NCBI GenBank assembly: GCA_963666515.2
Contig: OY762897.2
Span: forward strand, 800,001 to 864,000
Origin: Candidatus Binatia bacterium
Lineage (GTDB): Bacteria > Desulfobacterota > Binatia > UBA9968 > JAJDTQ01
Direction: 5' to 3'
Length of the DNA: 64,000 bases
The notes under the pieces are model-generated. The model searched no databases and was not told where the DNA came from. It saw nothing but the letters and a program-made list of their open reading frames with translations. A program made the translations under genes and the position numbers. Of the stretch, positions 2,479 to 59,574 are shown piece after piece; the stretch's first letter is position 1; the number at the start of each line of letters is the position of its first letter.

Positions 2479-3567
2479 CTACAGGCCGTAGAGCGCCTTG
2501 GGATTGTGGTACAGGATGTTGTCCTTCCGCTCCTGGCTGACGTCGTCCATCTTCTTCAGGTCGAGGATGGCGTCCATCTCGCTGGACGGATCGGTGTGGC
2601 CGTAGTCGGTGCCGATGACCAGGTTGCCCTCGCCCGAGTACTTGAGGACGTAGGGGATGTCGTCGTTGGTCTGGCAGGTGACGTAGATGCCGTACTCCTC
2701 GAAGAGGTCCTTGGGGAACTCGCGCCCGGCCGCCTGGTACCGGTTCTCGCTCTCCAGGTAGATCCACGGCACCCACTGGGAGGAGGCTTCGATGAAGCCC
2801 CAGCGGAGGTTCGGGAAGACCTGGGGGATCTCGCTCATGATGAGGCCCAGGCACGACGTGACCGTAGGCGCCCGGAACATGGCGAAACGGCCCGCGGTGG
2901 TGGGACGGTAGGTGTCGCAGTTGCCGGGGTTGCCGTTGGCGATGTGCACGGCGACGGCCATGTCCAGGTCCGCGGCCGCCTGGTAGACGGGGTAGAAGTA
3001 CGGATCGCACATGTCCCGGTCCCCCTCCAGCGGCCGCATGCAAACCGCCACCGCGCCGTCCTCCTGGGCCTGCTTCATCTGCGCCACCGCTTCGTCCAGC
3101 GCCAGCACCGGCACCACGCAGGACCAGCGCAGCCGGCCCTCGCTCTGTCGGTAGATGTCGCCCAGCCAGCGGTTCCAGCTCCGGCACAGCGCGGCCTCCA
3201 CATCCGGCCGGGTGGTGATCTGCTCGATCCAGAAGGTGTTGTGGAGCACCTGCACGTCCACCCCCAGCTTTTCCATGTGGTCGAGCCGAAGCTGGACGTC
3301 GTCCAGCTCGCGCGCGGCCTGGGGCGACTCGACGTTCCGTCCGAACTGGTCCGACAGGTCCCTCAGTTGCTGCTCGCTGTAGGTGGGGAAGCGGAACCCG
3401 CGGATCTTTTCGTCGATGACCCAGTACTGGAGGGTGGGTTCCTGGGGCGAGGAGAAGAGTGTAGGGCGGAACTTCTCCTCCGACGGCTCCAGGTAGTCCC
3501 ACGTGTGTTCGGTTTCGATCACGTGGGCATCGGCATCGATGACCGGAAGGCTTTCCTGGCTGGACAT
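2479..3567 (-). CDS. Amidohydrolase_2 family metal-dependent hydrolase/decarboxylase
   Basis: IDADAH, AVHIA, IGTDYGH motifs; start at MSSQESL after AGGAG. Confidence 0.9.
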   Translation of the reverse strand: MSSQESLPVIDADAHVIETEHTWDYLEPSEEKFRPTLFSSPQEPTLQYWVIDEKIRGFRFPTYSEQQLRDLSDQFGRNVESPQAARELDDVQLRLDHMEKLGVDVQVLHNTFWIEQITTRPDVEAALCRSWNRWLGDIYRQSEGRLRWSCVVPVLALDEAVAQMKQAQEDGAVAVCMRPLEGDRDMCDPYFYPVYQAAADLDMAVAVHIANGNPGNCDTYRPTTAGRFAMFRAPTVTSCLGLIMSEIPQVFPNLRWGFIEASSQWVPWIYLESENRYQAAGREFPKDLFEEYGIYVTCQTNDDIPYVLKYSGEGNLVIGTDYGHTDPSSEMDAILDLKKMDDVSQERKDNILYHNPKALYGL

Positions 3568-46459: not shown

Positions 46460-49150
46460 TCAGCGTGACGGCACCTCCCCGGGAACGAGACAGGCCAAGT
46501 TCTCGACAACTGGCAACGTGAACGGGAGTTCCAGGGCTTCTATCTGCGACTCGACGTACTGCTTTGCCTTTGTCATCAGATCCGCAACGTCACACGATGG
46601 GTGCACGTCCGCAAACATCGGGCTGCGGGGTTTGTCGGCCAATGGGTTCAGGCGCTGCATCAGTTCCCAGTCACGAACCAGGACCCATTCACCGTCGCCC
46701 TCCAGCCTGGTGGCCACGACGACGGCACGAATGGGGGCCGCCGAGCCGGTGACGCGGTCCTGTACCCTGAACACGAAGATCGGCGCGTCCAGGCCCCGGA
46801 CTGCGCCGAAAGCGCCGTTCAGTTCCACCGCATCGTGAACCGCTCGGTCGACGACCCGCAGTCCGACGCCAGCGACATCTTCCCCGTCCTTCGGTTGTGT
46901 TTCCCGGGCGAAGATAAGGTCGTAGCGATTCACCACGGCGATGGAGAAGTCGTCTCTCCACTCTTCCGGCGGAAGGAAGCTCAGACGCACATCCTCCGGC
47001 TGGTCGGGGCGCCGACCACGGACCGCCAGAATCGCCTTGAAGAACGGCACGAGATCCGGAAGATCCACTAAGGGGATCTGGCCCACTACCGATCCAAAGT
47101 CGAAGCGTGCGACATGGCCGACGAGATGGCGGACTGCCTTCACTGCGTCCTCGCCGCCAAATGTCGCGGTTTCCGTATCGAACCAGTCGTGGAGCGTTTG
47201 CCCACTGAGCGTGGGATCAGCGTAGGCGAACACCTTGGTGAACATGCCCGGCGATGCCATCCCGATCACGAGTTGGCGAATATCCTCGGGGTCGTCCATT
47301 GCCCCCCGAAAAGCCAAGTTGATTCGCTCCAGCTTCTCGTCCAGGAGATCCCAGATCCGGCTCTCCACCGTGTCCGGGTTTCGCACCGTGACTACATCGA
47401 CGGGGTCAGTTTGGCCGTAGCGGCTCAAGCGGCCGACACGTTGATGCAGGCGCATCGGGTTCCACGGCAGATCAACGTGAATCAAGGCGCTACAATGTCC
47501 CTGAAGGTCGACGCCCTCGCCAGCCGCTTCGGTCGAAACAAGGAAGCGCGCGTCCCCCCGGTTGAACCGTGCTGCCGCATCCTGCCGGTCTTCCTTCCAG
47601 CTCGAGATACTGCCAGACGAATCCTGCACATCGTCAAGGGCCCCGTCTCCGTTGATGAACGTCACACATCCGTCGCCGTAGCGCTTGTTCAGCGCGCTCA
47701 TAAGCAGCGCCTGGGTCGCCTTGTACTCTGTGAAGAAGAGCACTGACCTGTCGCGGAACTCTTCGTCGACCAGCGCAAGAATCCGTCCGATTTTCGTCTC
47801 TTCAGTCACCGCGTTTGCGGCCGCCAGCAATTCCTCGAGGGCTGGAATTTCGTTTGGATTGAGATCAACTCCACGCAGACTCTCCGCCACGCGTTCTTCC
47901 AGTTGACTGATCTCGTCCATATTGGCCGGATCGTCCTCAGCCTGCAGCTCTTGCAGTCGTACCAGATCCTCGCGCGAATCCTCCAACTTGGCCTTCGCCT
48001 GCTGCAGCCGGGCAAGTCGTCGAGCGAGGGCTCGTCGCACCGCCGCCACGGAGCTCGACGCCAGCTTCTGCATCGTAATCAGGATTAGAATCACCATGCG
48101 CCGATCCTGGAAACCGAGACCGGCCGCGTATGCTTTTCCGGTCACAATGAACTGAGTAAGCTGCTCGTAGAATCGCGCCTCTTGCGGAGAATATGCGTAC
48201 GTCTCTCGCCGTGACTGCACCGGGGTGAACAGCGGCTTGCCCGACATGTTCGTGACGGATTGCTTGTTGTTGCGGATCATCACGGTCCGGAGTTTTTCGA
48301 CCTGATCCTCAAGAGGCTCCCCGGGATCGAAGTCTTCTGGTCGAAGCAGCTTCAGCAGCGACAAGAATCCCGTGTCCTTGCCCCGATGGGGCGTACCCGT
48401 AAACAGCACCAGGGACTGTACTTTGCCTCGTTCCTGTAAGCGCTCCACCAGTTGATACGACAGCGTGCGGTGACCCTGTTCATCTACGTTCAAGTGGTGG
48501 GCTTCGTCGATGAGCACCAAGTCCCAGGGTTTTGCGTCGAATAGGCGCTCCCAACGATCACCTTTGTCGAGACGCAATGTATGCGCCGAAGCGACTATTC
48601 GGTCTTGGGTATTCCAGAAGTCCGAGGTTTTCGTATCGGCAGCGGGAACGTAGATCGAGACCCGGATGTCAAACATCTCCCGCAAACGCACTTGCCACTG
48701 TTCGACCAAGTTGGCTGGCGCCAGAATAAGCACCCGGCGCACGCGCCCCGCCGACAGGAGTGGCGTGAGGATGAGACCCGCTTCGATGGTCTTGCCAAGT
48801 CCTACATCGTCCGCTACCAGCCATCGCGTAGGCCACGATTCGAGCACGCGCTTGCAGACCCAGAGCTGGTGCGGCAGCAAGGCGATACGGGATCGGGAAA
48901 AGACGCCCCAAGCGTCGTTGACGGAACGAATGCACTCGCCCAGGATTCGCGTGACGACATCCAGAGCGGGGTCGAGATGTCCGGTGGCCACGCGTTCCGC
49001 GATATCCTCCAGCAGTTGGAGGTCGGTGGCCAGGCATTCCTCTATACCGTGCTCAAATCGGACCACAACGCTGTCGCCCTGATCCACGACGACTTGGCCG
49101 GGGCCGAAGCGGGGATGTCGCACTGCGGCCTTCTCGTCAAGTTGTGTCAT
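46460..49150 (-). CDS. SNF2-family (RapA/DrmD-like) helicase
   Basis: LVADDVGLGKT, LIDEAHH, FTGTPH, STEAAGEGVDLQ, DLPWNPMRLHQRVGR; ATG overlaps upstream stop (TGATG). Confidence 0.92.
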   Translation of the reverse strand: MTQLDEKAAVRHPRFGPGQVVVDQGDSVVVRFEHGIEECLATDLQLLEDIAERVATGHLDPALDVVTRILGECIRSVNDAWGVFSRSRIALLPHQLWVCKRVLESWPTRWLVADDVGLGKTIEAGLILTPLLSAGRVRRVLILAPANLVEQWQVRLREMFDIRVSIYVPAADTKTSDFWNTQDRIVASAHTLRLDKGDRWERLFDAKPWDLVLIDEAHHLNVDEQGHRTLSYQLVERLQERGKVQSLVLFTGTPHRGKDTGFLSLLKLLRPEDFDPGEPLEDQVEKLRTVMIRNNKQSVTNMSGKPLFTPVQSRRETYAYSPQEARFYEQLTQFIVTGKAYAAGLGFQDRRMVILILITMQKLASSSVAAVRRALARRLARLQQAKAKLEDSREDLVRLQELQAEDDPANMDEISQLEERVAESLRGVDLNPNEIPALEELLAAANAVTEETKIGRILALVDEEFRDRSVLFFTEYKATQALLMSALNKRYGDGCVTFINGDGALDDVQDSSGSISSWKEDRQDAAARFNRGDARFLVSTEAAGEGVDLQGHCSALIHVDLPWNPMRLHQRVGRLSRYGQTDPVDVVTVRNPDTVESRIWDLLDEKLERINLAFRGAMDDPEDIRQLVIGMASPGMFTKVFAYADPTLSGQTLHDWFDTETATFGGEDAVKAVRHLVGHVARFDFGSVVGQIPLVDLPDLVPFFKAILAVRGRRPDQPEDVRLSFLPPEEWRDDFSIAVVNRYDLIFARETQPKDGEDVAGVGLRVVDRAVHDAVELNGAFGAVRGLDAPIFVFRVQDRVTGSAAPIRAVVVATRLEGDGEWVLVRDWELMQRLNPLADKPRSPMFADVHPSCDVADLMTKAKQYVESQIEALELPFTLPVVENLACLVPGEVPSR

Positions 49151-52100
49151 CACTGCTCCAGGCCGAACCGACGGCGCAGTTCCGCGTTCAAGGCCACGTG
49201 TCGAAGGGGTATGTCGAAAGCACAATGGAGATTTGGGGTTTCCGTCCCCAACTTGGACGCCAGAAAGTTGAATATGGCACGTGCCTTCTCCGGATTGGAA
49301 AGACTTTCTTCCGACCTCAACCCGAGAGGCCTTAGGAAATCCAGGACCTGTTCGGAAGGAACCCAGCAGTACGGGAAGAGATGTTCGCCCGTAACAACTT
49401 CCAGACGCACTAGTTCTCGAAGTACCCAGTGGAGACCCATGTTGAGGGGCGCAGGCGGGGCATCGAAGTGTGTACCCGCGCCCGTGAGCGCTTCGTCGAC
49501 GCGTGGCGCAAGCAAGTGAGTGACTGAAGAAATGCTTTCAGGACGTCGGCCCGCCGATTTGAGCAAGCGAACATATACTGCCCGATACCGACTGAGTTGG
49601 TAGATTGCGGGAAACAGCGACATCCAATGCGGATACGTCAGCTTGGCCAAGGCGGTGTCGTGCCAGTCTCGCAGCACTCCCATCCAGGCATCGGCATCGT
49701 CAGGTGCCCTGAACACGCCCCACCATCCTTTCCTGTGGGCCAGCTCGAGAAAGTTTCGGTGTTGATCGTCATTTGTACGACCAAGGCTTCGGCACGCGCC
49801 TAGCACCAGCAGGGCGAGCCAATCATCTTCAGAATCGGCTTGCAGCCTGCCCGCTAGCCCGTCTCGCCGCAACCACTCGGGCCATACGTGCTTCTCGTAG
49901 GCAGCGATCACTGCCTTGCGCTCAGTGGCATCGTCCCACCATTCCACTAGTTGCCGATAGAATGCCTGAGAATCGAGCCCAACTGGCGCTGGCGGCTCCT
50001 CTGGAACCTGGGACCGGTCGGGAAACAGGGCACCCAGAAGTCTCTGGCGACGCCAAGGTTCCTCGCATAAGTCGCCGAGCATTCCGCGGACATCCTCGTA
50101 GTGCCGAAGCCACGGTGGGCGGGCGTTGAGAGGGACGAGATACGGAAGAACACGCTCTTGCAATTCTCCATCCAACAGATAGCGAACCGCAGCGGGGCGA
50201 AGGCCTGTTTCAAGGTCCATGTACCATTTCGCAATTTCGGCGGCATCAACGCGATGCTGCATCCGAAACCATCGGAATACGCTCCAATCTTCCCTGCATT
50301 CAATGTATGCCGGATCAAGAACCCGGGCGTCGGGAGCGAAGGCAGACCGCAGGAATTCCTCCCAGTGGTCTCCGTCGGCGTCATCCCGCAATACGGAGAC
50401 TTCTCGCAGCAGCAATCTTCGCAGTGGCTGAAGGCTTCCGTCCGCTGCTTGGGCTTGAATCTTGCCTCGCCAAGCTGCGCCGTGCGGATCGTTGGACATC
50501 AGGTTCCAAGCCGGATCTTGAGAAAGAGGGCGAATTGCGTGCAGCCGAGCCGGCGTCAAACGGTAATCCCACCGTCGAGCCAGTTCCGCCAACAGGTCGC
50601 ACGGGCGAAGCGGGGTCGAGCGGATGTGATCGTCCATTCCTGGGAAGTTGCGCAGTGGAAGGAGGAGCCGCTCGGTTTCCTCCGATACGACGAGGTGGCT
50701 TTCCAACAAACGCGCGAAATCTTCATCGTCCACTTCAGCGAGGGCGGCGCATAGCTCCGGGTTGTCCAAACCATCGACTGCGACTTTCCACGACATCCCG
50801 GAATTCAGCGGGGGCAACAGTGGGGAAAATGGCGCCGGAAGTCCGGTTGGCACGACGCCACGGGCGGCCATCCATGCGGATAGCCCGCGACCGTTCCCAT
50901 GCAATCTGCAAAGAAACATCCGGCGTAGCTTGTCGGAGGTCGCCGTGCCGGAAACGAGAGCCTTCCAGAGTGACGGCAGAAAGCTTCGACCGTCAACCCC
51001 AATCATGGGTCCATTGGGTTCATACGCTGCCTGTCGAGTATCGGCCAACACTTCGTGAAGGTTGAGCAGGCCTTCTCCGAGCGCTTCGCCGAGGTCACTG
51101 ACGGCTCGAAGGGTCGTATCGTCATCGAGCGACACATGGGTTCTGCCAGGGTCGAGCTTGAAGGGTCCGTTAACGACGTATCCGCAGCCCCAACTCTCGC
51201 TCGTGGGCGTGACGTTCCAGAGAAACGGCACATCCGGGTTGAAAGCGGTGGGAACGCCATCTCGAAGCCCGATGGCCAACGCTGTGGTACCCATATTGTC
51301 CCGTCCCGCGTCCGCAGGTCGGAAACGAAGGACTCGCCAGCGGCCGGGATGGTTGGGGAAATCGGTCTCGGCACCGATCGACCACCCGGGCGCGCCGTCG
51401 ATCTGCTTTCCGTCGAAGACGTGGGTCCCGGGAAACGGTCCGCCCTCCACAACGACTTCTTGCACCTGCCGTGCGAATACTGGCAACAGGACACGCGCGC
51501 AGGCAAAACGACCGAACATCTCCGAGATCAGCGTGTGTGCTTCGACATCCGAGCGCAGGGGCAGCCGGACGCGCGTTGCTCGACGGCCTTCAACCATCCA
51601 TGAATCCACATTGTCGGCGACGGCCTGTTCCTGCGGCAGTAACCCTCCGGCAATGGAGAAGGCGATGAAGCCGCTGACCACGGACGGAGACGACGAGACG
51701 AGGTGGACGGATTTGAAGCCGAGGCCAAAGCGCCCGGTGGTCGAAGATGAAGAGGACTCTCCAGGAGCCTCGCCGGGTTTGCCGCTCAGATTCATGAGCA
51801 TCATGAAATAGAGGTCCTGATCCCACTGACGCTCTCGCCCGGCGGGGAATACAGCGCCGCCAGAGTCGTTGATCGGACGCCCCCAGTGCATGATGTCCAC
51901 GGTGGGTACGCCGCCATGTTCGTGGATTCGGACAAAGAGACGACGGGTGGCAAGAGGCAGCGGTCCGCCGTTGATCTCGGCGGCCTCTGCAAGCGCGTCG
52001 TCGGCGTTCTGCACGAGTTCCAACAGCACGCTGTCGCGTCCGTAGCCGTAGCGCCGCATCATCTCGTTGACTCGCTTCCAAAGGAATGTCCGATGCTCGG

Positions 52101-55100
52101 GCGCTTCGACGAGGGACGCCAAGTGGTCCAGGGCTTCTCTCTCGATCTTGAGCTTGACCAAGTTGATCGGCTGTGCCTGCTCCCGCTTCCTTTGCGCCTG
52201 CTCGGCCTTCCTGAGGGCGTCCCTGAGCGGTTCGTTGTCCTTGACATCGAGCTGTTGAAGCGTGAGCGGCAGATGCGCCTTGATAGAGGCTAGCACGGGA
52301 GCGAGGTTCGCTTGGGAGGTGGTGCTCCATCGGGACCACCAACGGTTTACCTGCTCGCGGTCCAGCTTAAGGTACCCGCAGGCCCATCTCTCGACGGTGC
52401 CGCCGAGCAGGTGCAAGAGTTCGGACGTGGAGCGGTTCTGCGGCTCGACGTCACGCAGAGTGATCTCCCAGAAGGGGCCAAGCGGCTTGAGCATATACTG
52501 CGAGCGGGGGTACCGAATGGGGTCGATGGCGAACAGCGTGTCGTCGTCGGGTTCGGCTTCCATCTCCAGCTGTGATCCCAGGACATTGACCGCACTCACA
52601 CGGTCACTATGCGCGACCTGTGGTCGGACGAAGACACTGATATCTGCACAGGGATCCTGTCCGCTCGGGCCGACGAATTCGCTACGTATTGCGTCGATGC
52701 TGACGTCTTCGCCAAGCCATTGCTCAGCAAGCGTCGCGATAGTCCCGTGCAGGCCGCTGCCCAGCAAACTGAGGAATGCACCGACAGCGGCGGGCTGGAG
52801 TCGTCCACGCCAAGGCTCGAAGTACTTTTCCAACGTGTCCAGTCCGTAGCCACCCCAGCCGGGTTGGATAAGTTCCGGTCCAGGGCTCCGGTCGTCGCCG
52901 GTAAGTTGGAGAATTGGGCGGAGTTCGGAAACCAGGCGGTGCCGACGCGCGATGCCGGTTTCGGATCGTGCGACGTCGCGGCTCTCATGCCAATTGCCGT
53001 CCTGGGTCGGTAGGTGGATTTTTGGCAGGACATGCGTGAAAAAGTTTTCCGTCTTTGCGAAACAGCCCAAGAGTGTGAGGAACATACGCCCGTCGGAAGA
53101 TCCCTTCGGCGGTCTTTTGTCGGCAAGGCCGGTCAGCATTTGGATCTGACGGTTCGGGGGGATAGGCGCACAGAGTGCTTTTGCCAACCTCAAGAGCAGT
53201 TCCGAATCATCTCCGAGTCCACCGTCACCGTGTCGCAGAACATTCTTGACGAAGTGCACCAGCTTCCATCCGCGATGGCTGCTGGAGAGCGTCGTTTCAA
53301 GTGCGCACTCGAGCAACGGAACGGTGACCAGTTCTGGTTGCGGTAGGACAAGCCACGCGCCGTCATCCACCTGCGCAACCTTGTCGGAATCCAGGGCGTC
53401 GACCATCCGCCGTACTTGGATGTTGCGATTTGGTCGCCCAAGTGCTTCGCGGACCACCGGCTCCGCTACGCGCCAAATCTCTCGCTCGACGATGTCGGGA
53501 AGCCGCTTGTCCTTAAGGGCACCGGCCGCCGCGAGGTCGGCGATGGCATCCAGCACTGCTTGCGGGGCGACGAGCACCGCATCCGGCGCAAGACCCCCGC
53601 CATCGCGACGCGGGAGCCAACATCCGTCCCTCAGTAGTCCACGCAGTACACGGACTTGCGGCAGCGTCATTTGGCCGTCGGCGGGACATACCGCCTGCAC
53701 GATCTGCCTGGCAAAACGCCACGGACGCGAATCCTCCAGCATGAGTCGAAGGACGCCGTCGCGGTCCATGACGGGAAGGGACTCGTAGAGATGGGCAAGC
53801 TGGGGATACGGATCCAGGATGCGCACTTCTGCAGCGAGTTCCGGCGGCAATGGAAATTCGTCCGTCGCCCCCGTCGAACGCCGTGCGAGTTGATCGAACG
53901 CCCCGCGACTTCCGTCAACGCCCCGGTGAAGTGGCATCCTTTGCCAGCGTCGGCGATCCTCCGGTTCAGGGCTGTACAAGCTTCGGAGTAGAAGCAGTGC
54001 CTCCTCGTTGCCAAGCACCGTCCAGTCGACAGGTTGTTCCAGGCAGAGGCAGTCACCGAGAATCCGATGTAGCACTTTGAGGTCGGCCCGACTGACGGAT
54101 AGTGCGTTGGCGAGATCTTGTGAAATCGTATCGACCCACCTGCCTTGAACCGTGCGCCATGACTGGTCCATGAGTCGCAACAGGATGGCCAGTGCTCGCG
54201 CATTGTCGTCGTCGCCGTGGAAAAGCTCGGTATCCTGCCCGACGACATCTACCGCGCGCCCTGCAAGGAGCGCACGTGCGGCCAAACGAACACTGTCGTT
54301 GTCCGTGATGTTCGGCGCGAGCCGATTGAGCAGCCGTGTCCGATGGGCAGGCTCGGCGAACCGTTCGGCTCGAAGCACTGCAGCGGCCAATGCCTCTGGT
54401 GTGGGTGACGGCGCATCGGCGATGGATCCCACCACGTCACCGCTCACGAACCAAGCGGCTTCGTCGAGCGCCTTCGCAAGTTCCATGACGGCCTGCTTCG
54501 GATCGGCGAGTCGTTCCGGCCGGATTCTGTCTGTGCCGTTGGAGTCCGTAAACTCCGAAGCCGGACTGGCGAATACCCGGCGGTTCTCGATTTGGCGGCG
54601 CAACTCGACGATGGACCAAGCTTCCTCCCGATCCTCCGGTAACCTGACCGCCCGCAGCAACGGCACCTTAACCAGATGCTGAACCATGGGGTGGTTATGT
54701 CGTCGTCTGGATAGCAGCGTCTCGGCAAGGACAAGCCGGGAGTGCCGCAATGGCTCCGATTCGCCTTCCACTTCCAAGCGTCGTCCCAAGGTCAACAGCG
54801 CACGATCCAACCGTTCCTGGTCAAGCTGCGGGGCCGTCGGCGACCCCTCTGGACGCCGTCCGAACGGCAGCGGGAACAGCCCTTCGCCTATCATCTCTTC
54901 TGCAGCAAGCTCGACAACGGCCTGTTGGCTTTCCACAGGTGTTTCGACCAGCCACGCCTTCGGCAGCCCGTGGCACAGATCTCGCCACGCCTCCCGCAAC
55001 TCGTCGCGAGATTCTCTCGAGACTGAACGTCGGGTCGTATGGGCAAGCGCGCCGTCGCCGATCTTTCCCGCAAGCCATCGAGCGACTGCGGCGGCGCGTA

Positions 55101-56130
55101 TATCTCCGTCACGGGCGTCCTGACCGATGACATGGAAGACAACTCCCTTGATCCAATGCAGAGATTGCAGAGACCCGAACACGTCGCCCGGAATGCAGTT
55201 CAGGAGGCGTTCGAGCGGGTCGACGGTCCAATCGTCGAGGTCACCTGCGAAACGGGGGACAGCGTCGTCGATGAACACGTCATCGCCCGTGCGTTGGCTG
55301 CAAGGGTCCACGAACTGCCTGCGAACAGCCTCGGGCGCCTGACTCCACTTTGGGATCGACAGAACAGGACGTGCATTCGCGTCAAGCGCTCTCCATCGAA
55401 CCCCGTCGGTCGCAACAACTGGTAGGAGCCAATGTCGTCGGGTGACGAACTCCAAGCGGTTCTTGACCATTTCCGAGCCGATGACCGCCTCTAGCAGCCT
55501 CCGTACTGCGCGCTCGCCGACTCCATCTACCGCATTGGCGAGGGCGCTTGGCAGCAAAGGAAGCAGCAGCTCTTCGCACAGCGTCCTGTTCCAACGAACG
55601 CGCATGTCACGTTCACTTGCGGCATCGCCAATATCGTCGGTGACGCCGGGAATGGACCGGCGGTCCTGGGACGGCCAGAAGTAGCCGCACAGGATGATTT
55701 CCCAGGCAGGCGAGGGACCGTGGCTCTCCACGATCGCACTGGAACTCGGCTCGGGATCGTCGTCCAGCGGCAGGAACACGGCCCAGCGGAGCCGTGTTCC
55801 CGAAAGCTGGTCATCCAAGTCGCTGGGTCGCAGTACGGTAACTGCGGCGTGAGCGAGAGCCTTCCGCGGCACCGGGGAGTAGCGACCGTGTCGCCACTGC
55901 GGGGATTGCGGCCAATCGGGCTGCGACCGGAGTCGAGACAAGCTTTCGTTGCCGCGTACCTCGATTCCTGCGACGGACCAGCTCCGATTGTCGGAGATAA
56001 TTTCGCCCTCGAAGGCCTGGTCCGAGAAATACCCGCGGTCGTCCGTATATCGCCCGACCCATCCCACCGTCTGCCGGGTCACACACACTAGCGAGGCTTC
56101 GCCTCAGACCGACGAGGGGGTAAGGGGATT

Positions 56131-56234
56131 GGCTCCGGTCGCTTGTAGCAGGGATTGAATCCCTGGTCATGGGACCTTGCAAGGTCGGACCTCAAAGGGT
56201 CAAATGGGCATAAAAGCCCGAAGCAACCGGAGCC
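56131..56234 (+). other. Multibranch structured leader (RNA or ssDNA) of the element
   Basis: 14-bp outer stem (one mismatch) 56131-56144/56221-56234 enclosing four small hairpins. Confidence 0.65.
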
Positions 56235-56238
56235 GGAC

Positions 56239-57846
56239 ATGAGCCTACCACAAACCGTAGCGGAAGTATTGCGCGATCACGTGACGCTGGAATACGAGTC
56301 GGTGGATCGCCTGTACTTGAACCTGTATGTGCCGCAGTTGCAGAGCGTGGGCGGGGTAGTGGGGTATCTGCACAAGCACCATGGCCAGCGGTTTGCGTCG
56401 ACGGTGGCGCTGGCGCCCAAGAGTCGGGAGTTCGTGCAGGCGGTGAAGGACTTTGCGGAGCGGGAGCAGATCGAGGTGGTGCACTTCAAGAAGGGCCAGC
56501 GCAAGGACGAGGTGACGCAGGAGTACCTGGGGCGGTTCAAGGGAACCGAAGGGGTTTTGTACATCGGGATAGCGCAGGAGAAGGCCCGTGTGATGCGCAC
56601 CGAGCGGCGCCGGAACCCGGACACCGGGGTCACCTATCCGTGGGTGGTCTCGTCTACCGCGATGGTCAACCATGTGTATTTCTATTGCGTGGACAAACAG
56701 GCGGGGCCGTTCTTCATCAAGTTCTGCACCTACTTCCCGTACAACGGCAAGCTGTGCCTCAACGGCAACGAGTACGCCAAGTGCCAGTTGCGCGAGCGCG
56801 GCATCCCGTTCGAGGCTTTGGACAACGGCGTGCGCTGCTGCGGAGACCCCGAGGCGCTGCAACAGATCTGCGAAGGCTTCGATGCCGCTTTCATCGACAG
56901 ACTGGCGCGCAAGTGGTTCGATCGCCTGCCGCATCCGTATACGCCTCAGGACCGTCGCGCCGGTCTGCGCTACGACATCTCCATCCTGCAAGCGGAGTTC
57001 AGCCTGACCCAGGTGCTCGACCGCCCGGCCTCGGGCCGCGTCTTTTTCGAGGACGTGATCCGCGAGAACCTCGATCTCGGTCGCCCCAGCCAGGTGCAGT
57101 TGATCTTCCAGCGCCGGGTCACCCGGCGCACCCCCGGTCGGTTCCGTACCCGGGTCATCACCGCAGGCGTCACCCCTTCCTTGCACGTGGACTACAAGCA
57201 CTCGCGCATCAAGCAGTACCACAAGGAAGGGCAGGCGCTGCGCACCGAGACCACCGTCAACGACACCTATGACTTCGCCCTGGGCCGGCGGCTGTCTAAC
57301 CTGGCGGCGTTGTGCCAGGTCGGCTTCACAGCCAACCGTCGTCTGTTGCAGATAGAAACCATCAGCCACGACTGTGCCCTGGGTGAAGACGAACTCCAAC
57401 GCCATCAACGCGGCCTGGAGTTCCACGGACAACGCGCCTCGGCCCTGCGCTTCGCCGATGAGCGCGTGCAGGCTCTGATGCAGGCCCTGCTCTTGTTCAC
57501 TCTTTCGGCCCGCGGCTTCTCCAACCGCGACCTGCGCGGGCACCTCGGTGCACTCCTGGGCCTCGATCCCAGTCCAATGCGCCCGGGCCGAATGAGTTAC
57601 GACCTGAGACGCCTGCGCCTGCACGGCCTGATCGAGCGCATCCCCGGCGCCTACCGCTACCACTTGACCGAACACGGCCTCAAGGTGGCGATGTTCTACA
57701 CGCGTGTCTACAACCGCATCCTTCGCCCCGGCCTGGCCCATCTTGCGCCCGACGCCGTGAGCGGCAATACCAAGACCCATCGGCGCTTTGCCGCCATCAC
57801 CAGGAACCTCGATGCCATTTGCGATGAGGCGAAGCTCGTCGCTTAA
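56239..57846 (+). CDS. Putative transposase: Rep-initiator-like domain plus C-terminal winged HTH
   Basis: Only long coding-like ORF in the element; YKHSRIKQYHK..LRTETTVN motif; wHTH-like SYDLRRLRLHGLIERIPGAYRYHLT. Confidence 0.7.
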   Translation: MSLPQTVAEVLRDHVTLEYESVDRLYLNLYVPQLQSVGGVVGYLHKHHGQRFASTVALAPKSREFVQAVKDFAEREQIEVVHFKKGQRKDEVTQEYLGRFKGTEGVLYIGIAQEKARVMRTERRRNPDTGVTYPWVVSSTAMVNHVYFYCVDKQAGPFFIKFCTYFPYNGKLCLNGNEYAKCQLRERGIPFEALDNGVRCCGDPEALQQICEGFDAAFIDRLARKWFDRLPHPYTPQDRRAGLRYDISILQAEFSLTQVLDRPASGRVFFEDVIRENLDLGRPSQVQLIFQRRVTRRTPGRFRTRVITAGVTPSLHVDYKHSRIKQYHKEGQALRTETTVNDTYDFALGRRLSNLAALCQVGFTANRRLLQIETISHDCALGEDELQRHQRGLEFHGQRASALRFADERVQALMQALLLFTLSARGFSNRDLRGHLGALLGLDPSPMRPGRMSYDLRRLRLHGLIERIPGAYRYHLTEHGLKVAMFYTRVYNRILRPGLAHLAPDAVSGNTKTHRRFAAITRNLDAICDEAKLVA

Positions 57847-58752
57847 ACTACCGAGCGTTACAACTCGCGATGGCCTACGATAGTATTCATGTACGAACGA
57901 AGTCCAGTTCAAATATCTTGTCTTCCTGAGTCAAGATCCTGTCGATCAAGGATTCTAGTCTTTCCAGGTTGCGTAGACTCTCCGGCCCTGCTGCACGCTC
58001 TGCTTCGATAGTGTGAAGATGCCCGCACTGCGCCAGCAGCAATGCGGCGGGCGTCGCGCATCTGATCCAGGCGCAGAGATCATCCGTTTGCGGGCAATGT
58101 GTCCCCAACCCGTACTGGTGACCTTCCACACCGCGATCCAGATGTTGGGGAAGTCGCAACGGTACCCACAGCAGGAGGCCGTTGCTCGAATTCCCAATGA
58201 GTTCCGTCGTCACTGACCGCAGCCGCTCGACGTCAATCTCGTGCCAGTCGGGATGCAGGGGATCGGCTTCTCCGCTTTCTCCGGTCCCCGCCCACGGGTT
58301 CAGAACGCCGGCACGCCACTTCCCATCCTGGGCTCCGATGTAGAGAAATGCCTCGCATATATGGAAGACGCTCTTCAACCCAATACCGAAGGTGCCGATC
58401 TTGCCAACCTCGTCCTCCTTGGATCCGCCGACGGCCTTATGCAGCGCCTCACGATCTTGGTCGGGGAACTCCCCGTCGTTCGCAACCAGGAGTGCAGGTC
58501 CGTGGAGCAGACTGTTTCGCGCATCGGTCCAACCGCGCTCCAGCACCGCGAGCTTGAGACGGCGTGCACCTGCGTCGTCGGCATTTTGGACCAGTTCCCG
58601 GAACAGGGCGCGTCCATCCCCGGCATCCTTGTAGACGTCAGCCAGAAGGGTCTGGATTGCCTTGATCTCGTCGAGCGGGCTTCGGACGATGCCGGAGTTT
58701 GGTCGGACATCGACGTCGGGCAGCCGTGCTTGGTCAGACCCGACCGTAGGCA

Positions 58753-59574
58753 TCAGTCGTCGAAGAATGCGAGAGTCCGGATCTCGATGCTCTCCCGCGG
58801 CGGCGCGTCCGCCGGGGTGCTGGGGTGCTCGAAGGCGGAATGGGCGGAAAAGCGCGCCCGGCCGTCGGTCTTCGAGTCGTAGCACTTGAAGACGATGGCC
58901 TCGTCGGGCTGCATGTCCGGGAAGTAGTAGAACCGGTGGCCGGGGCTGTAGGTCAGGTGGTAGGTCTCGCCGAGCCGGTTGGGGTGGGGCCGCACGGTGG
59001 GGATGAGGTCCTCGGTGGCGATGCTCTGGGCGTCGCACATGGCCAGGGGATCCCGCAGCACCGGGTTCAGCATGCCGCGCCACACCTGGACCACCGCGAA
59101 GCGGCGCTTGAACAGATCGTCGGCCTCGTCGGGCAGCAGGTCGCGCACCCGTTCCGGGCCGGACCACTCGGTGTAGTCGTTGTGCACGTTCTGGACCGGT
59201 GCCTTGGCGCCCTTTTCCTCGTAGCCGGAGCGCAGGGTATGGTCGAAGATCAGCACCCGGCAGGCGCCGGTGTTCTCCTTGATCAGCGCCTCCATCTCGG
59301 GATAGTAGACCGCCCGGATCTCGTCCTCGTCGAAGAAGTCGGTCATCTTCGTGGGCTGGGGCCGCAGGGCGAAACCGTGGTGCTCAATGGAGAGCTCGGG
59401 GTGGTTGCGGCCGTTCCGGACCGAGGCCGTGTGGGTCTCGTACGTCCGGTCCTTGTGCGGATAGCCGAGGCTGGGCTTGTCCCAGGTGGTCACGGGCCGA
59501 GGGCCGGTGTGCACCATGTAGTTGAAGCTCGCTTCAACGGCGTCATCGAGAGTTTCCGCTACCGCTGTGGCCAT
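58753..59574 (-). CDS. CmcJ/NvfI (AsaB-like) oxidoreductase
   Basis: YYPEMEALIK, FDHTLR, VHNDYT, PLAMCDA, FKCYDS, HSAF, RESIEIR. Confidence 0.85.
   Translation of the reverse strand: MATAVAETLDDAVEASFNYMVHTGPRPVTTWDKPSLGYPHKDRTYETHTASVRNGRNHPELSIEHHGFALRPQPTKMTDFFDEDEIRAVYYPEMEALIKENTGACRVLIFDHTLRSGYEEKGAKAPVQNVHNDYTEWSGPERVRDLLPDEADDLFKRRFAVVQVWRGMLNPVLRDPLAMCDAQSIATEDLIPTVRPHPNRLGETYHLTYSPGHRFYYFPDMQPDEAIVFKCYDSKTDGRARFSAHSAFEHPSTPADAPPRESIEIRTLAFFDD

Follow-up and report, generated by a model that had tools for sequence, protein, structure and literature searches.

Identification of a CTAG-bounded element within a sacsin-domain gene

The window examined in this study is a stretch of 64,000 nucleotides from the genome of a Candidatus Binatia bacterium (GenBank assembly GCA_963666515.2, contig OY762897.2, positions 800,001 to 864,000 of the forward strand), in which a gene for a giant sacsin-domain protein was found to be interrupted by a mobile element encoding a single protein of 535 residues. 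The element is delimited by CTAG words at positions 56088-56091 and 57955-57958 of the window, with 1863 bp in between. Removal of the element together with one CTAG (1867 bp) generated a single 2788-residue open frame across the junction on the − strand, and both halves of the interrupted gene carry the sacsin domain PF25794; when none or both of the CTAG words were kept, the host frame was not restored. An intact orthologue of the host gene was not found by DNA comparison in 30 relatives. An earlier note on this DNA, made from the sequence letters, had placed 1867 bp between the CTAG words, had proposed that deletion with one CTAG repairs the host frame, and had described the ends as free of inverted repeats. 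The coordinates proved exact, the repaired frame was recovered, and comparison of the ends revealed only CTA to be shared in inverted orientation. Apart from the 535-residue gene, no other conserved open reading frame (ORF) was detected in the element. The positions of its features are listed in Table 1.

The genome from which the window derives (4.67 Mb in two contigs, 66% G+C) was searched for further copies, as the earlier note had recommended, and nine were found, 100% identical across all 1871 bases. All nine have CTAG on both sides of the 1863-bp core, and the flanks beyond are unrelated. The CTAG word is about 12-fold under-represented in this genome (1197 observed versus ~14,760 expected from base composition); thus, its presence at 18 of 18 flanks is not due to chance. 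No derivatives resembling miniature inverted-repeat transposable elements were detected in the genome, in which the left-end motif was found only at the nine copies. Outside the window, at C1:2645461-2645643, two adjacent pieces of 92 bp match element positions 88-180 and 507-599 at ~90% identity and seem to be the remains of a related copy that has decayed and undergone an internal deletion.

Occupancy of the locus in other samples was examined by comparing it with Logan contigs from four sequencing runs of the same organism (X1 to X4). In runs X2, X3, and X4, derived from other samples, position 56087 was joined directly to 57955, with 1867 nucleotides skipped and four letters that fit both sides; in X3, one 5138-nt contig spans this empty site with at least 255 letters on each side. 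Contigs of run X1 bridge both filled junctions. The occurrence of a single-CTAG empty site in other samples indicates that the element has moved recently. The depth over the element was ~6.5 to 11 times that of its flanks in runs of this organism, and the encoded protein was present in only one of 41 related genomes searched, the window's own, with no occurrence in 24 genomes of other species of the genus or in 16 genomes of two other families of the order. Such a pattern is that of an insertion sequence (IS) that was acquired recently and has since burst to nine copies; identical copies, defined ends, unrelated sites, and an empty/filled polymorphism, by which insertion sequences are generically recognized, were all observed. 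The comparisons given here and below demonstrate the mobility of the element, its ends, its target, and the breadth of its family. Short contigs of runs X1 to X4 were also seen to carry clusters of five differences inside the element (window 56424-56475 and 57033-57090), which suggest a second, slightly divergent copy or variant in the samples.

Distribution of the family

Protein searches recovered 10,355 cluster representatives at E ≤ 0.001, including 1214 at E ≤ 1e-30, and in a separate search all of the at least 8000 scored candidates were significant. The best 120 matches were labeled only "hypothetical protein" and were mostly located on contigs of 1.75-3 kb, as expected for repeats that collapse in assembly. 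For comparison of the family, 80 loci were fetched whose proteins are 55-74% identical to that of the window. These loci derive from isolates of Paraburkholderia, Cupriavidus, and Variovorax and from metagenome-assembled genomes (MAGs) labeled as Pseudomonadota, Acidobacteriota, Actinomycetota, Verrucomicrobiota, Chloroflexota, Gemmatimonadota, Planctomycetota, Armatimonadota, Myxococcota, and Spirochaetota, such that close relatives occur in MAGs and isolates carrying the labels of at least 10 phyla. Family members were also detected on plasmids of Caballeronia, Burkholderia, Rhodococcus, and Mycobacterium. A quick maximum-likelihood tree of the family needed at least 15 changes of phylum label compared with a minimum of nine; since short IS contigs are easily mis-binned in MAGs, this result is only suggestive of transfer between phyla. 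Two loci, L054 and L055, encode identical proteins on contigs binned as Chloroflexota and Gemmatimonadota, which would reflect either a very recent transfer or an error of MAG binning.

Annotation has not singled out this family, as all eight of the annotated records examined name the gene hypothetical, uncharacterized, or ArsR. The last of these names is found on Paraburkholderia phytofirmans plasmid pOLGA1 (locus L099, 2941-4455), where a 25%-identical member that does not have the conserved ends of the close family lies between two cytochrome c genes and is annotated as an "ArsR family transcriptional regulator". On a plasmid of Burkholderia sp. RPE67 (AP014580.1, match H28), the homologous element was detected in two pieces, with an IS3/IS911 transposase and an integrase catalytic region annotated underneath; this copy appears to have been interrupted by another IS.

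Junctions and target site

The ends of the family were defined from copy pairs within eight multi-copy genomes. On the left, the order was found to be flank, CTA, A (or G or C), and then a 25-nt motif; on the right, TCAAG is followed by 4-5 nt, CTAG, and the flank. Across 63 distinct left junctions, the first of the three bases preceding the element was C in 62, the second T in 57, and the third A in all 63; the fourth base was most often A (52 junctions), otherwise G (10) or C (one). On the right, 46 distinct junctions were compared, and in 44 of them the base after the terminal CTA is G. The homologs thus retain conserved ends as well as CTA/CTAG junctions. The claim of the earlier note that CTAG stands at both ends was found to hold for the window copy and for nearly all right ends but for only a minority of the left ends of the relatives, where the tetramer is CTAA in 52 of 63 cases, CTAG in 10, and CTAC in one. 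As the fourth left base is mostly A in the relatives, we take it to be the element's own first base, with CTA coming from the target, and CTA is then the only sequence common to both junctions; breakage and joining thus most likely take place directly after CTA.

This is supported by an orthologous pair of plasmid sites with flanks that are 85-90% identical: the filled site of Caballeronia SBC2 has CTA...CTAG, and the corresponding empty site of Burkholderia PAMC 26561 has one tetramer. An asymmetric preference was also found in the left flank: of the 63 junctions, 44 have an A located four bases upstream of CTA (binomial P ~ 1e-13), and 48 have A or T at the base directly before it. In addition, the right end of locus L080 contains a 44-nt tandem duplication with CTA on both sides (3075-3165), the product expected if CTA is the point of breakage and joining. 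Other irregular ends were noted: (i) a 155-nt duplication of the right end of L035 (~3100-3303) is not bounded by CTA; (ii) the right end of the Rhodococcus locus L014 has CTAG followed by two tandem 8-nt units; and (iii) in an Acidobacteriota subfamily (L037, L042, L051, L059, L067, L085, and L086) the left motif is preceded by the tetramer CCAG, TTAG, or CTAA, and ~20 nt upstream are alike between loci, as if these copies lay beside the end of another repeat or IS or had a longer left end.

Structure of the element ends

The left end is almost invariant among the relatives, and its 25-nt pattern was located on the + strand in 68 of 86 loci; in the window genome it occurs only at the nine copies, with no control hits. 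Within this motif, the left stem was found to covary from GAGGC/GCCTC to GGGGC/GCCCC in Rhodococcus, in MAGs of Actinomycetes and Acidimicrobiales, and in two Acidobacteriota loci. In Acidobacteria-type loci (L054, L057, L062, and others), the terminal 24 nt of the left end form a perfect inverted repeat with a site ~45 nt inside the element, with a folding energy of −38 kcal/mol and a z-score of −9.8 for the structure within the first ~95 nt. The right end has a fixed geometry, which was common to 48 distinct ends: a CTTGACT-type box at a distance of ~42 nt and TCAAG at one of 8 nt from the end, with an inverted partner of the box matching at least six of seven bases in 26 of the 48. In the window copy, ~65 extra nt separate the stop codon from the right box when compared with its relatives. 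A promoter formed at a circle junction from the TTGACT box of the right end was considered, but the box would lie too far from the left end.

The encoded protein and its relationship to known families

Sequence-family models were applied to the query and 26 diverse members of the family (alignment A1), with matches reported to E ≤ 1. Pfam, NCBIfam, PHROGs, and PADLOC assigned no family and returned only weak winged-helix matches at residues ~400-520, including MarR, AbiEi_4, and HTH_27 matches to the C-terminus. None of the 26 members matched the IS-transposase, HUH, DDE, rve, IS630, DEDD, or recombinase models of NCBIfam and Pfam, or, by name, Y1_Tnp, Y2_Tnp, DEDD_Tnp_IS110, Transposase_20, and DUF7845. 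A conserved His-hydrophobic-His motif was absent from alignments A1 and A3. By sequence, the PDB gave only weak MarR-type matches to the C-terminus, and the ESM Atlas only clusters of "hypothetical protein". These results agree with the initial impression that the protein lacks a DDE, HUH, DEDD, serine, or tyrosine recombinase signature, and they do not place it in an established IS family; the D-R-L-Y-L, ...KQYHK, and LRTETT segments that had been singled out at the same time belong to the family's best-conserved positions.

The preference for CTAG raises the question of a DDE transposase of the cut-and-paste type. IS630 targets CTAG and duplicates TA, and the junctions described above are compatible with a TA duplication, as would be expected if the element were of the IS630 or IS5 kind with ends diverged beyond recognition. 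This explanation is close to excluded: terminal inverted repeats were found in none of the compared lineages, the DDE, rve, and IS630 families were without a match, and an RNase H fold was not among the structural matches listed below.

A different explanation arises from the winged helix being the only part of the protein that is recognizable by sequence and from the ArsR annotation of the 25%-identical relative, both of which would suit an ORF that is only DNA binding or regulatory, in an element moved in trans by a host enzyme, or that of another mobile element, acting at CTAG. We regard this as very improbable, because the same ends recur across bins and isolates of at least 10 phylum labels carrying only the 535-residue type of ORF, with no second conserved ORF present, and because the 390-residue N-terminal region has conserved acidic, tyrosine, and basic residues typical of an enzyme.

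Predicted fold and candidate active site

An AlphaFold2 model of the full-length protein was built on a 26-row alignment and reached a mean predicted local distance difference test score (pLDDT) of 85.4 and a predicted template modeling score (pTM) of 0.75. The model is beta-rich to residue ~345, followed by a long helix and a C-terminal winged helix, in which DSSP delineated a recognition helix at 449-461 with the conserved Y454 and a wing at 465-476. When compared with the PDB by Foldseek, as had been suggested for Rep_trans (PF02486), the Rep_trans initiator RepSTK1 was found near the top at marginal E-values (4cij chains B, D, and A; E 0.010-0.023; probability 0.94, 0.93, and 0.89, respectively), together with the archaeal TATA-binding proteins (TBPs) 1ais and 1mp9 (probability 0.84) and, on the C-terminus, MarR-type regulators (probability 0.92-0.99). 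Against BFVD, six matches were obtained at E ≤ 0.001 (best 1.8e-5, probability 1.00), and the matches listed include giant-virus TBPs and several Inoviridae proteins. Among these, A0A2N9QVX7 (E 2.0e-4, probability 0.99) and A0A345MNV4 (E 8.8e-3, probability 0.97) are presented as a TBP and as an Inoviridae Rep with a Rep_trans domain, respectively, in the 2026 Rep-Arvir paper, where a comparable structure-only link is drawn (PMC13107129). An RNase H/DDE fold, which would have pointed to a conventional transposase, was not among the Foldseek matches listed for either library.

The model was examined for the motifs of Rep_trans enzymes, which are given as N′ (D), I (RxD), III (YxK), and IV (RxE) in sections of Carr et al. 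2016 (PMC4797284) and of a 2017 review (PMC5714925). Counterparts were identified in the same order as (i) D23 on predicted strand 15-30; (ii) Q251-x-E253 on predicted strand 246-260; (iii) K325-x-Y327-x-K329 on predicted strand 322-329; and (iv) R335-x-E337 on predicted strand 333-340. Each of these candidate residues is kept in 91-99% of the covering sequences of a 271-sequence alignment, with Y327 retained in 224 of 242 and K325 in 229 of 242. The K325-Q-Y327-H-K329 segment has the Rep_trans feature of a tyrosine on a predicted beta-strand with basic neighbors, and the conserved residues D23, E253, and E337 each lie on a predicted strand of their own, these strands following the order of the Rep_trans motifs. 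D23, Q251xE253, K325xY327xK329, and R335xE337 are candidate active-site residues.

Several results weigh against this assignment. No PDB match reached E ≤ 0.001, and the superposition on 4cij is globally poor (TMt 0.35; root mean square deviation ~13 Å). When residues 1-345 were modeled again from an alignment of lesser depth (at least 60% identity), the pLDDT was below 50 for residues 274-345, the strands that matter, and in this truncated low-confidence model 4cij fell to rank 47 with a probability of 0.10, with low-probability matches only. By sequence, none of the 26 members matched the Pfam Rep_trans model at E ≤ 1, a PF02486 search of the window genome gave no match, and hhalign against a three-sequence Rep_trans alignment yielded a probability of 0.19 and no match. 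Furthermore, the Y327-R335 spacing of eight residues is shorter than Y191-R212 in RepD. A homodimer prediction for two chains of residues 1-400 (score 0.00, verdict "no answer") was evidence neither way.

The marginal Foldseek E-values, low TM-scores, loss of the match with the truncated model, and lack of a sequence-profile link to Rep_trans, along with the conservation of other tyrosines (Y147, Y149, and Y454), would also fit a genuine new IS family in which the likeness to Rep_trans and TBP is spurious and the enzyme has another nuclease or recombinase fold, with a nucleophile such as Y147 or Y454. We consider this improbable, as TBP-fold and Rep_trans-type Rep matches recur in two independent libraries at probabilities of 0.84-1.00 and the motif order on the strands agrees with Rep_trans. 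Overall, the assignment of a Rep_trans-like fold is moderately supported, and we would place it clearly, if not far, above even odds.

A structured leader upstream of the transposase gene

A conserved structured leader of ~110 nt was detected between the left motif and the ATG. When 51 distinct leaders were folded one by one, with z-scores calculated against dinucleotide shuffles, the median z was −3.5, and the leader of the window copy folded at −54.9 kcal/mol with a z of −6.0. In all 51, a GGAG lies within 24 nt of the ATG; it is wholly paired in 29 and has two or three bases paired in most others. This pairing forms a long outer stem around three or four hairpins, with at least three hairpins in 48 of the 51. 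The sequences of the hairpins vary between subfamilies and the shape is kept; on MAFFT alignments, RNAalifold recovered only the outer stem, with two-sided changes at three of five pairs, as the hairpins of different subfamilies did not align properly.

Insertion sequences commonly occlude a ribosome-binding site, and the simplest reading of the leader is that it does so and probably keeps translation of the transposase low. A bolder and distinctly less likely proposal, to which we give little weight, is that the conserved four-way leader also serves as an RNA or single-stranded DNA cofactor of the reaction. An IS110-like guide RNA was considered and rejected, as inspection revealed no segment complementary to the ends or target that is conserved between subfamilies. 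Rfam over the element gave only two sub-threshold chance matches.

Table 1. Features of the element and the interrupted gene (positions in the window)
Feature	Position	Strand	Basis
CTA at the left junction, taken to stem from the target as the 5′ three bases of its CTAG	56088..56090	+	Left-junction counts; empty sites
Mobile element itself (1867 bp, G to ...CTA) if the cut falls after CTA	56091..57957	+	Nine copies; 1867-bp skip; frame restored
Conserved left-end 25-mer, 1 nt from junction	56092..56116	+	+ strand pattern in 68/86 loci
Left-end hairpin, 5-bp stem and 3-nt loop, within the 25-mer	56093-56105	+	Stem covariation
Structured leader	56130..56238	+	Single-sequence folds; RNAalifold outer stem
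Shine-Dalgarno GGAG, paired with upstream complement in the outer stem	56229-56232	+	Leader folds
Sole ORF, 535 residues plus stop, putative transposase	56239..57846	+	ORF list; 10,355 cluster representatives; no family assigned
Beta-rich N-terminal region, residues 14-345, predicted TBP-like/Rep_trans-like	56278..57273	+	AlphaFold2 model; Foldseek
D23 codon, candidate active site	56305-56307	+	Conservation; predicted strand
Y327 codon, candidate active site	57217-57219	+	Conservation; predicted strand
C-terminal winged helix-turn-helix, residues ~405-480	57451..57678	+	Weak sequence matches; Foldseek MarR-type; DSSP
Right end	57847..57957	+	Geometry common to 48 distinct right ends
Diverged CTTGACT-type box; inverted partner	57917-57923; 57929-57935	+	Right-end comparison
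TCAAG; terminal CTA	57946-57950; 57955-57957	+	Right-end comparison
G of target CTAG, right flank	57958..57958	+	G after terminal CTA in 44/46 distinct right junctions
Interrupted host gene, giant sacsin-domain protein, 2788-residue frame without the element	49150..59167	−	Frame restoration; PF25794

Proposed route of transposition

Taken together, we propose that the element is an active member of a large unannotated IS family, in which a TBP-like (Rep_trans-type) tyrosine transesterase with a C-terminal winged helix would act through single-strand nicking at CTA; we assign this reading as a whole a probability of roughly 0.55. The suggestion of the earlier note that the element is a rolling-circle or single-stranded DNA transposon driven by a non-HUH, Rep-like enzyme is in line with this proposal and gains support from the fold match, from the absence of known families, and from the conserved ends and junctions of the homologs, with the mechanism remaining conditional; neither of the two outcomes that the note had named as refuting it was observed. 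In the proposed route, the winged helix would bind the asymmetric ends, that is, the left 25-mer with its hairpin and the CTTGACT...TCAAG boxes of the right end. The catalytic domain would then use Y327 and a metal held by D23, E253, and E337 to nick one strand immediately 3′ of CTA, at CTA^A/G of the left junction and at CTA^G following the terminal CTA of the element, and would become linked to the 5′ phosphate, as in Rep_trans initiators. The displaced or excised strand would be closed into a circle with the junction ...CTA|A/G...; the same reactions run in reverse would insert it at a target CTA^G, and the host would synthesize the second strand. Such a route would leave (i) no inverted repeats; (ii) no true target duplication; (iii) CTA at both junctions of one CTAG target; and (iv) a preference for A four bases upstream of CTA.

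Sections of two papers describe Rep_trans enzymes as nicking one strand beside a hairpin, holding the 5′ phosphate through a tyrosine, and rejoining the ends (PMC4797284, PMC5714925). The asymmetry of the ends, the threefold occurrence of CTA (left flank, 3′ end of the element, and target), the single CTAG left after loss, and the one-sided flank preference, when considered with this chemistry, point to nicking after CTA.

The main alternative retains the same element and protein and invokes a double-stranded circle and conservative site-specific recombination. A dimer of the protein would cut both strands of a palindromic core with a stagger of 2 nt (C^TA^G) or 3 nt, at the circle junction and at the target, and partners would be exchanged as by a topoisomerase or a serine recombinase. 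The target is indeed palindromic, TA or CTA is common to junction and target, and the predicted product junctions do not differ from those expected of a single-strand route. A dimer could recognize duplex sites in the left-end "hairpin" and in the 24-bp inverted repeat of the Acidobacteria type, and the tyrosine-plus-three-carboxylate site of Rep_trans is likened to that of type II topoisomerases in a section of Carr et al. (PMC4797284).

Several observations weigh against a single-strand route, and the lack of a replication-orientation bias also speaks for a duplex circle. The terminal hairpins of the window copy, as single-stranded DNA, are not unusually stable (z ~ 0); a palindromic duplex binding site would give the same covariation of the left stem; with respect to the direction of replication, six of the nine copies are co-directional and three opposite, with no strict bias; and a circle or tandem junction was not found among the contig joints of the four runs, in which rare forms are dropped by contigs. 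Given the ordinary stability of the hairpins and the absence of a strand bias, sequence alone cannot tell single-strand from duplex recognition. Nonetheless, we judge the duplex circle to be unlikely, though the foremost of the alternatives, because the ends are strongly asymmetric, the flank preference is likewise asymmetric, with A at −4 on the left only, and the TBP-fold Rep enzymes are described in sections of the literature as nicking one strand only (PMC4797284, PMC5714925).

Comparison with known systems

The best structural match of the protein in the PDB is Rep_trans (pT181 RepC/RepD, RepSTK1 4CIJ, and relaxases of MOBT-type integrative and conjugative elements [ICEs]). In Rep_trans enzymes, and by prediction in the element protein, a beta-sheet catalytic domain precedes a C-terminal DNA-binding domain of the helix-turn-helix type; the two also share a conserved D / (R/Q)x(D/E) / (R/K)xYxK / RxE series on successive strands (predicted ones in the element protein) and a hairpin adjoining the presumed nick site. 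The element protein differs in that it is not matched by the family at the sequence level and has a catalytic region ~150 residues longer, and it is borne on a multicopy 1.9-kb insertion sequence rather than on a plasmid, phage, or ICE. In the sections of two papers that touch on this point, Rep_trans enzymes are described in plasmids, phages, and conjugative elements, and the role of transposase is given only to HUH enzymes (IS91, ISCR, and Helitrons) (PMC5714925, PMC13107129). A closer parallel in recognizability is Rep-Arvir (DUF7845) of archaeal pleolipoviruses and plasmids, which according to portions of its description likewise joins a TBP-like catalytic domain to a winged helix-turn-helix, is recognizable by structure only, matches the same A0A2N9QVX7 and A0A345MNV4 proteins, and has a similar catalytic pattern of an N-terminal acidic residue, a tyrosine near 283 or 327, and an acidic residue 10-20 later (PMC13107129). 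In contrast to Rep-Arvir, the element family belongs to bacteria and their chromosomes, its context is a transposon and not a replicon, and none of the 26 members compared gave a DUF7845 match.

In outline, the proposed route resembles those of IS91, the Helitrons, and IS200/IS605, which act with HUH enzymes. The element shares with IS91/ISCR and the Helitrons the lack of inverted repeats and of target duplication, a single ORF, asymmetric hairpin ends, and a short specific target word at one end; it differs from them in having no HUH motif in its conserved columns, no Y2_Tnp or HUH match, another predicted fold, and the same trinucleotide at both junctions. The comparison with the Helitron "hairpin plus CTRR" is only an analogy. 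Like IS200/IS605, the element inserts 3′ of a short word without duplication, has subterminal hairpins, and leaves a precise empty site, but it has no Y1_Tnp match, no replication-strand bias among the nine copies, and no TnpB partner, and its protein of 535 residues contrasts with an IS200/IS605 transposase of ~150.

The IS630/Tc1-mariner and IS5 groups prefer the rare, flexible CTAG word and have terminal inverted repeats and DDE transposases, neither of which was found in the element. IS110/IS1111 elements (DEDD, bridge RNA) are similar in lacking inverted repeats and in having a structured noncoding region upstream of the gene; unlike these, the element has no match to DEDD_Tnp_IS110 or Transposase_20, a target of only 4-8 nt, and a leader that has no conserved complementarity to target or ends and appears instead to occlude the ribosome-binding site.

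Novelty and implications

The catalytic classes of bacterial transposases comprise DDE, DEDD, HUH, tyrosine and serine recombinases, and Cas1. To our knowledge, the TBP-fold Rep_trans superfamily has so far been linked only with the replication of plasmids and phages and with conjugative relaxases. A full-text literature search, which did not extend to ISfinder, subscription journals, or supplementary files, yielded no account of this IS family and none of a Rep_trans-type transposase, and a name may exist. The element probably represents an undescribed class of bacterial insertion sequence, and we see an even chance that it is the first, active representative of a novel class of prokaryotic transposons, with a TBP-fold (Rep_trans-like) tyrosine nuclease as transposase.

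Should the assignment of the enzyme prove correct, this would be a new transposase class, an IS of the rolling-circle or single-strand type using a different nuclease superfamily, and thus a second, independent invention of such transposition beside that of the HUH enzymes. Insertion sequences would also be linked evolutionarily to pT181-type plasmids, the Reps of filamentous phages, and MOBT relaxases, and thousands of "hypothetical protein" genes and orphan metagenome contigs of ~1.8 kb would be explained. Since annotation pipelines miss the family, IS-mediated gene disruption, such as that of the giant sacsin-domain gene, is overlooked. The precise insertion of DNA at a 4-nt word without duplication may in addition be of interest to tool builders.

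With regard to the genome itself, the cumulative GC skew places the origin of replication near 3.7-3.9 Mb and the terminus near 1.4 Mb, and the skew displays an abrupt jump of more than one unit between 3.8 and 4.0 Mb.

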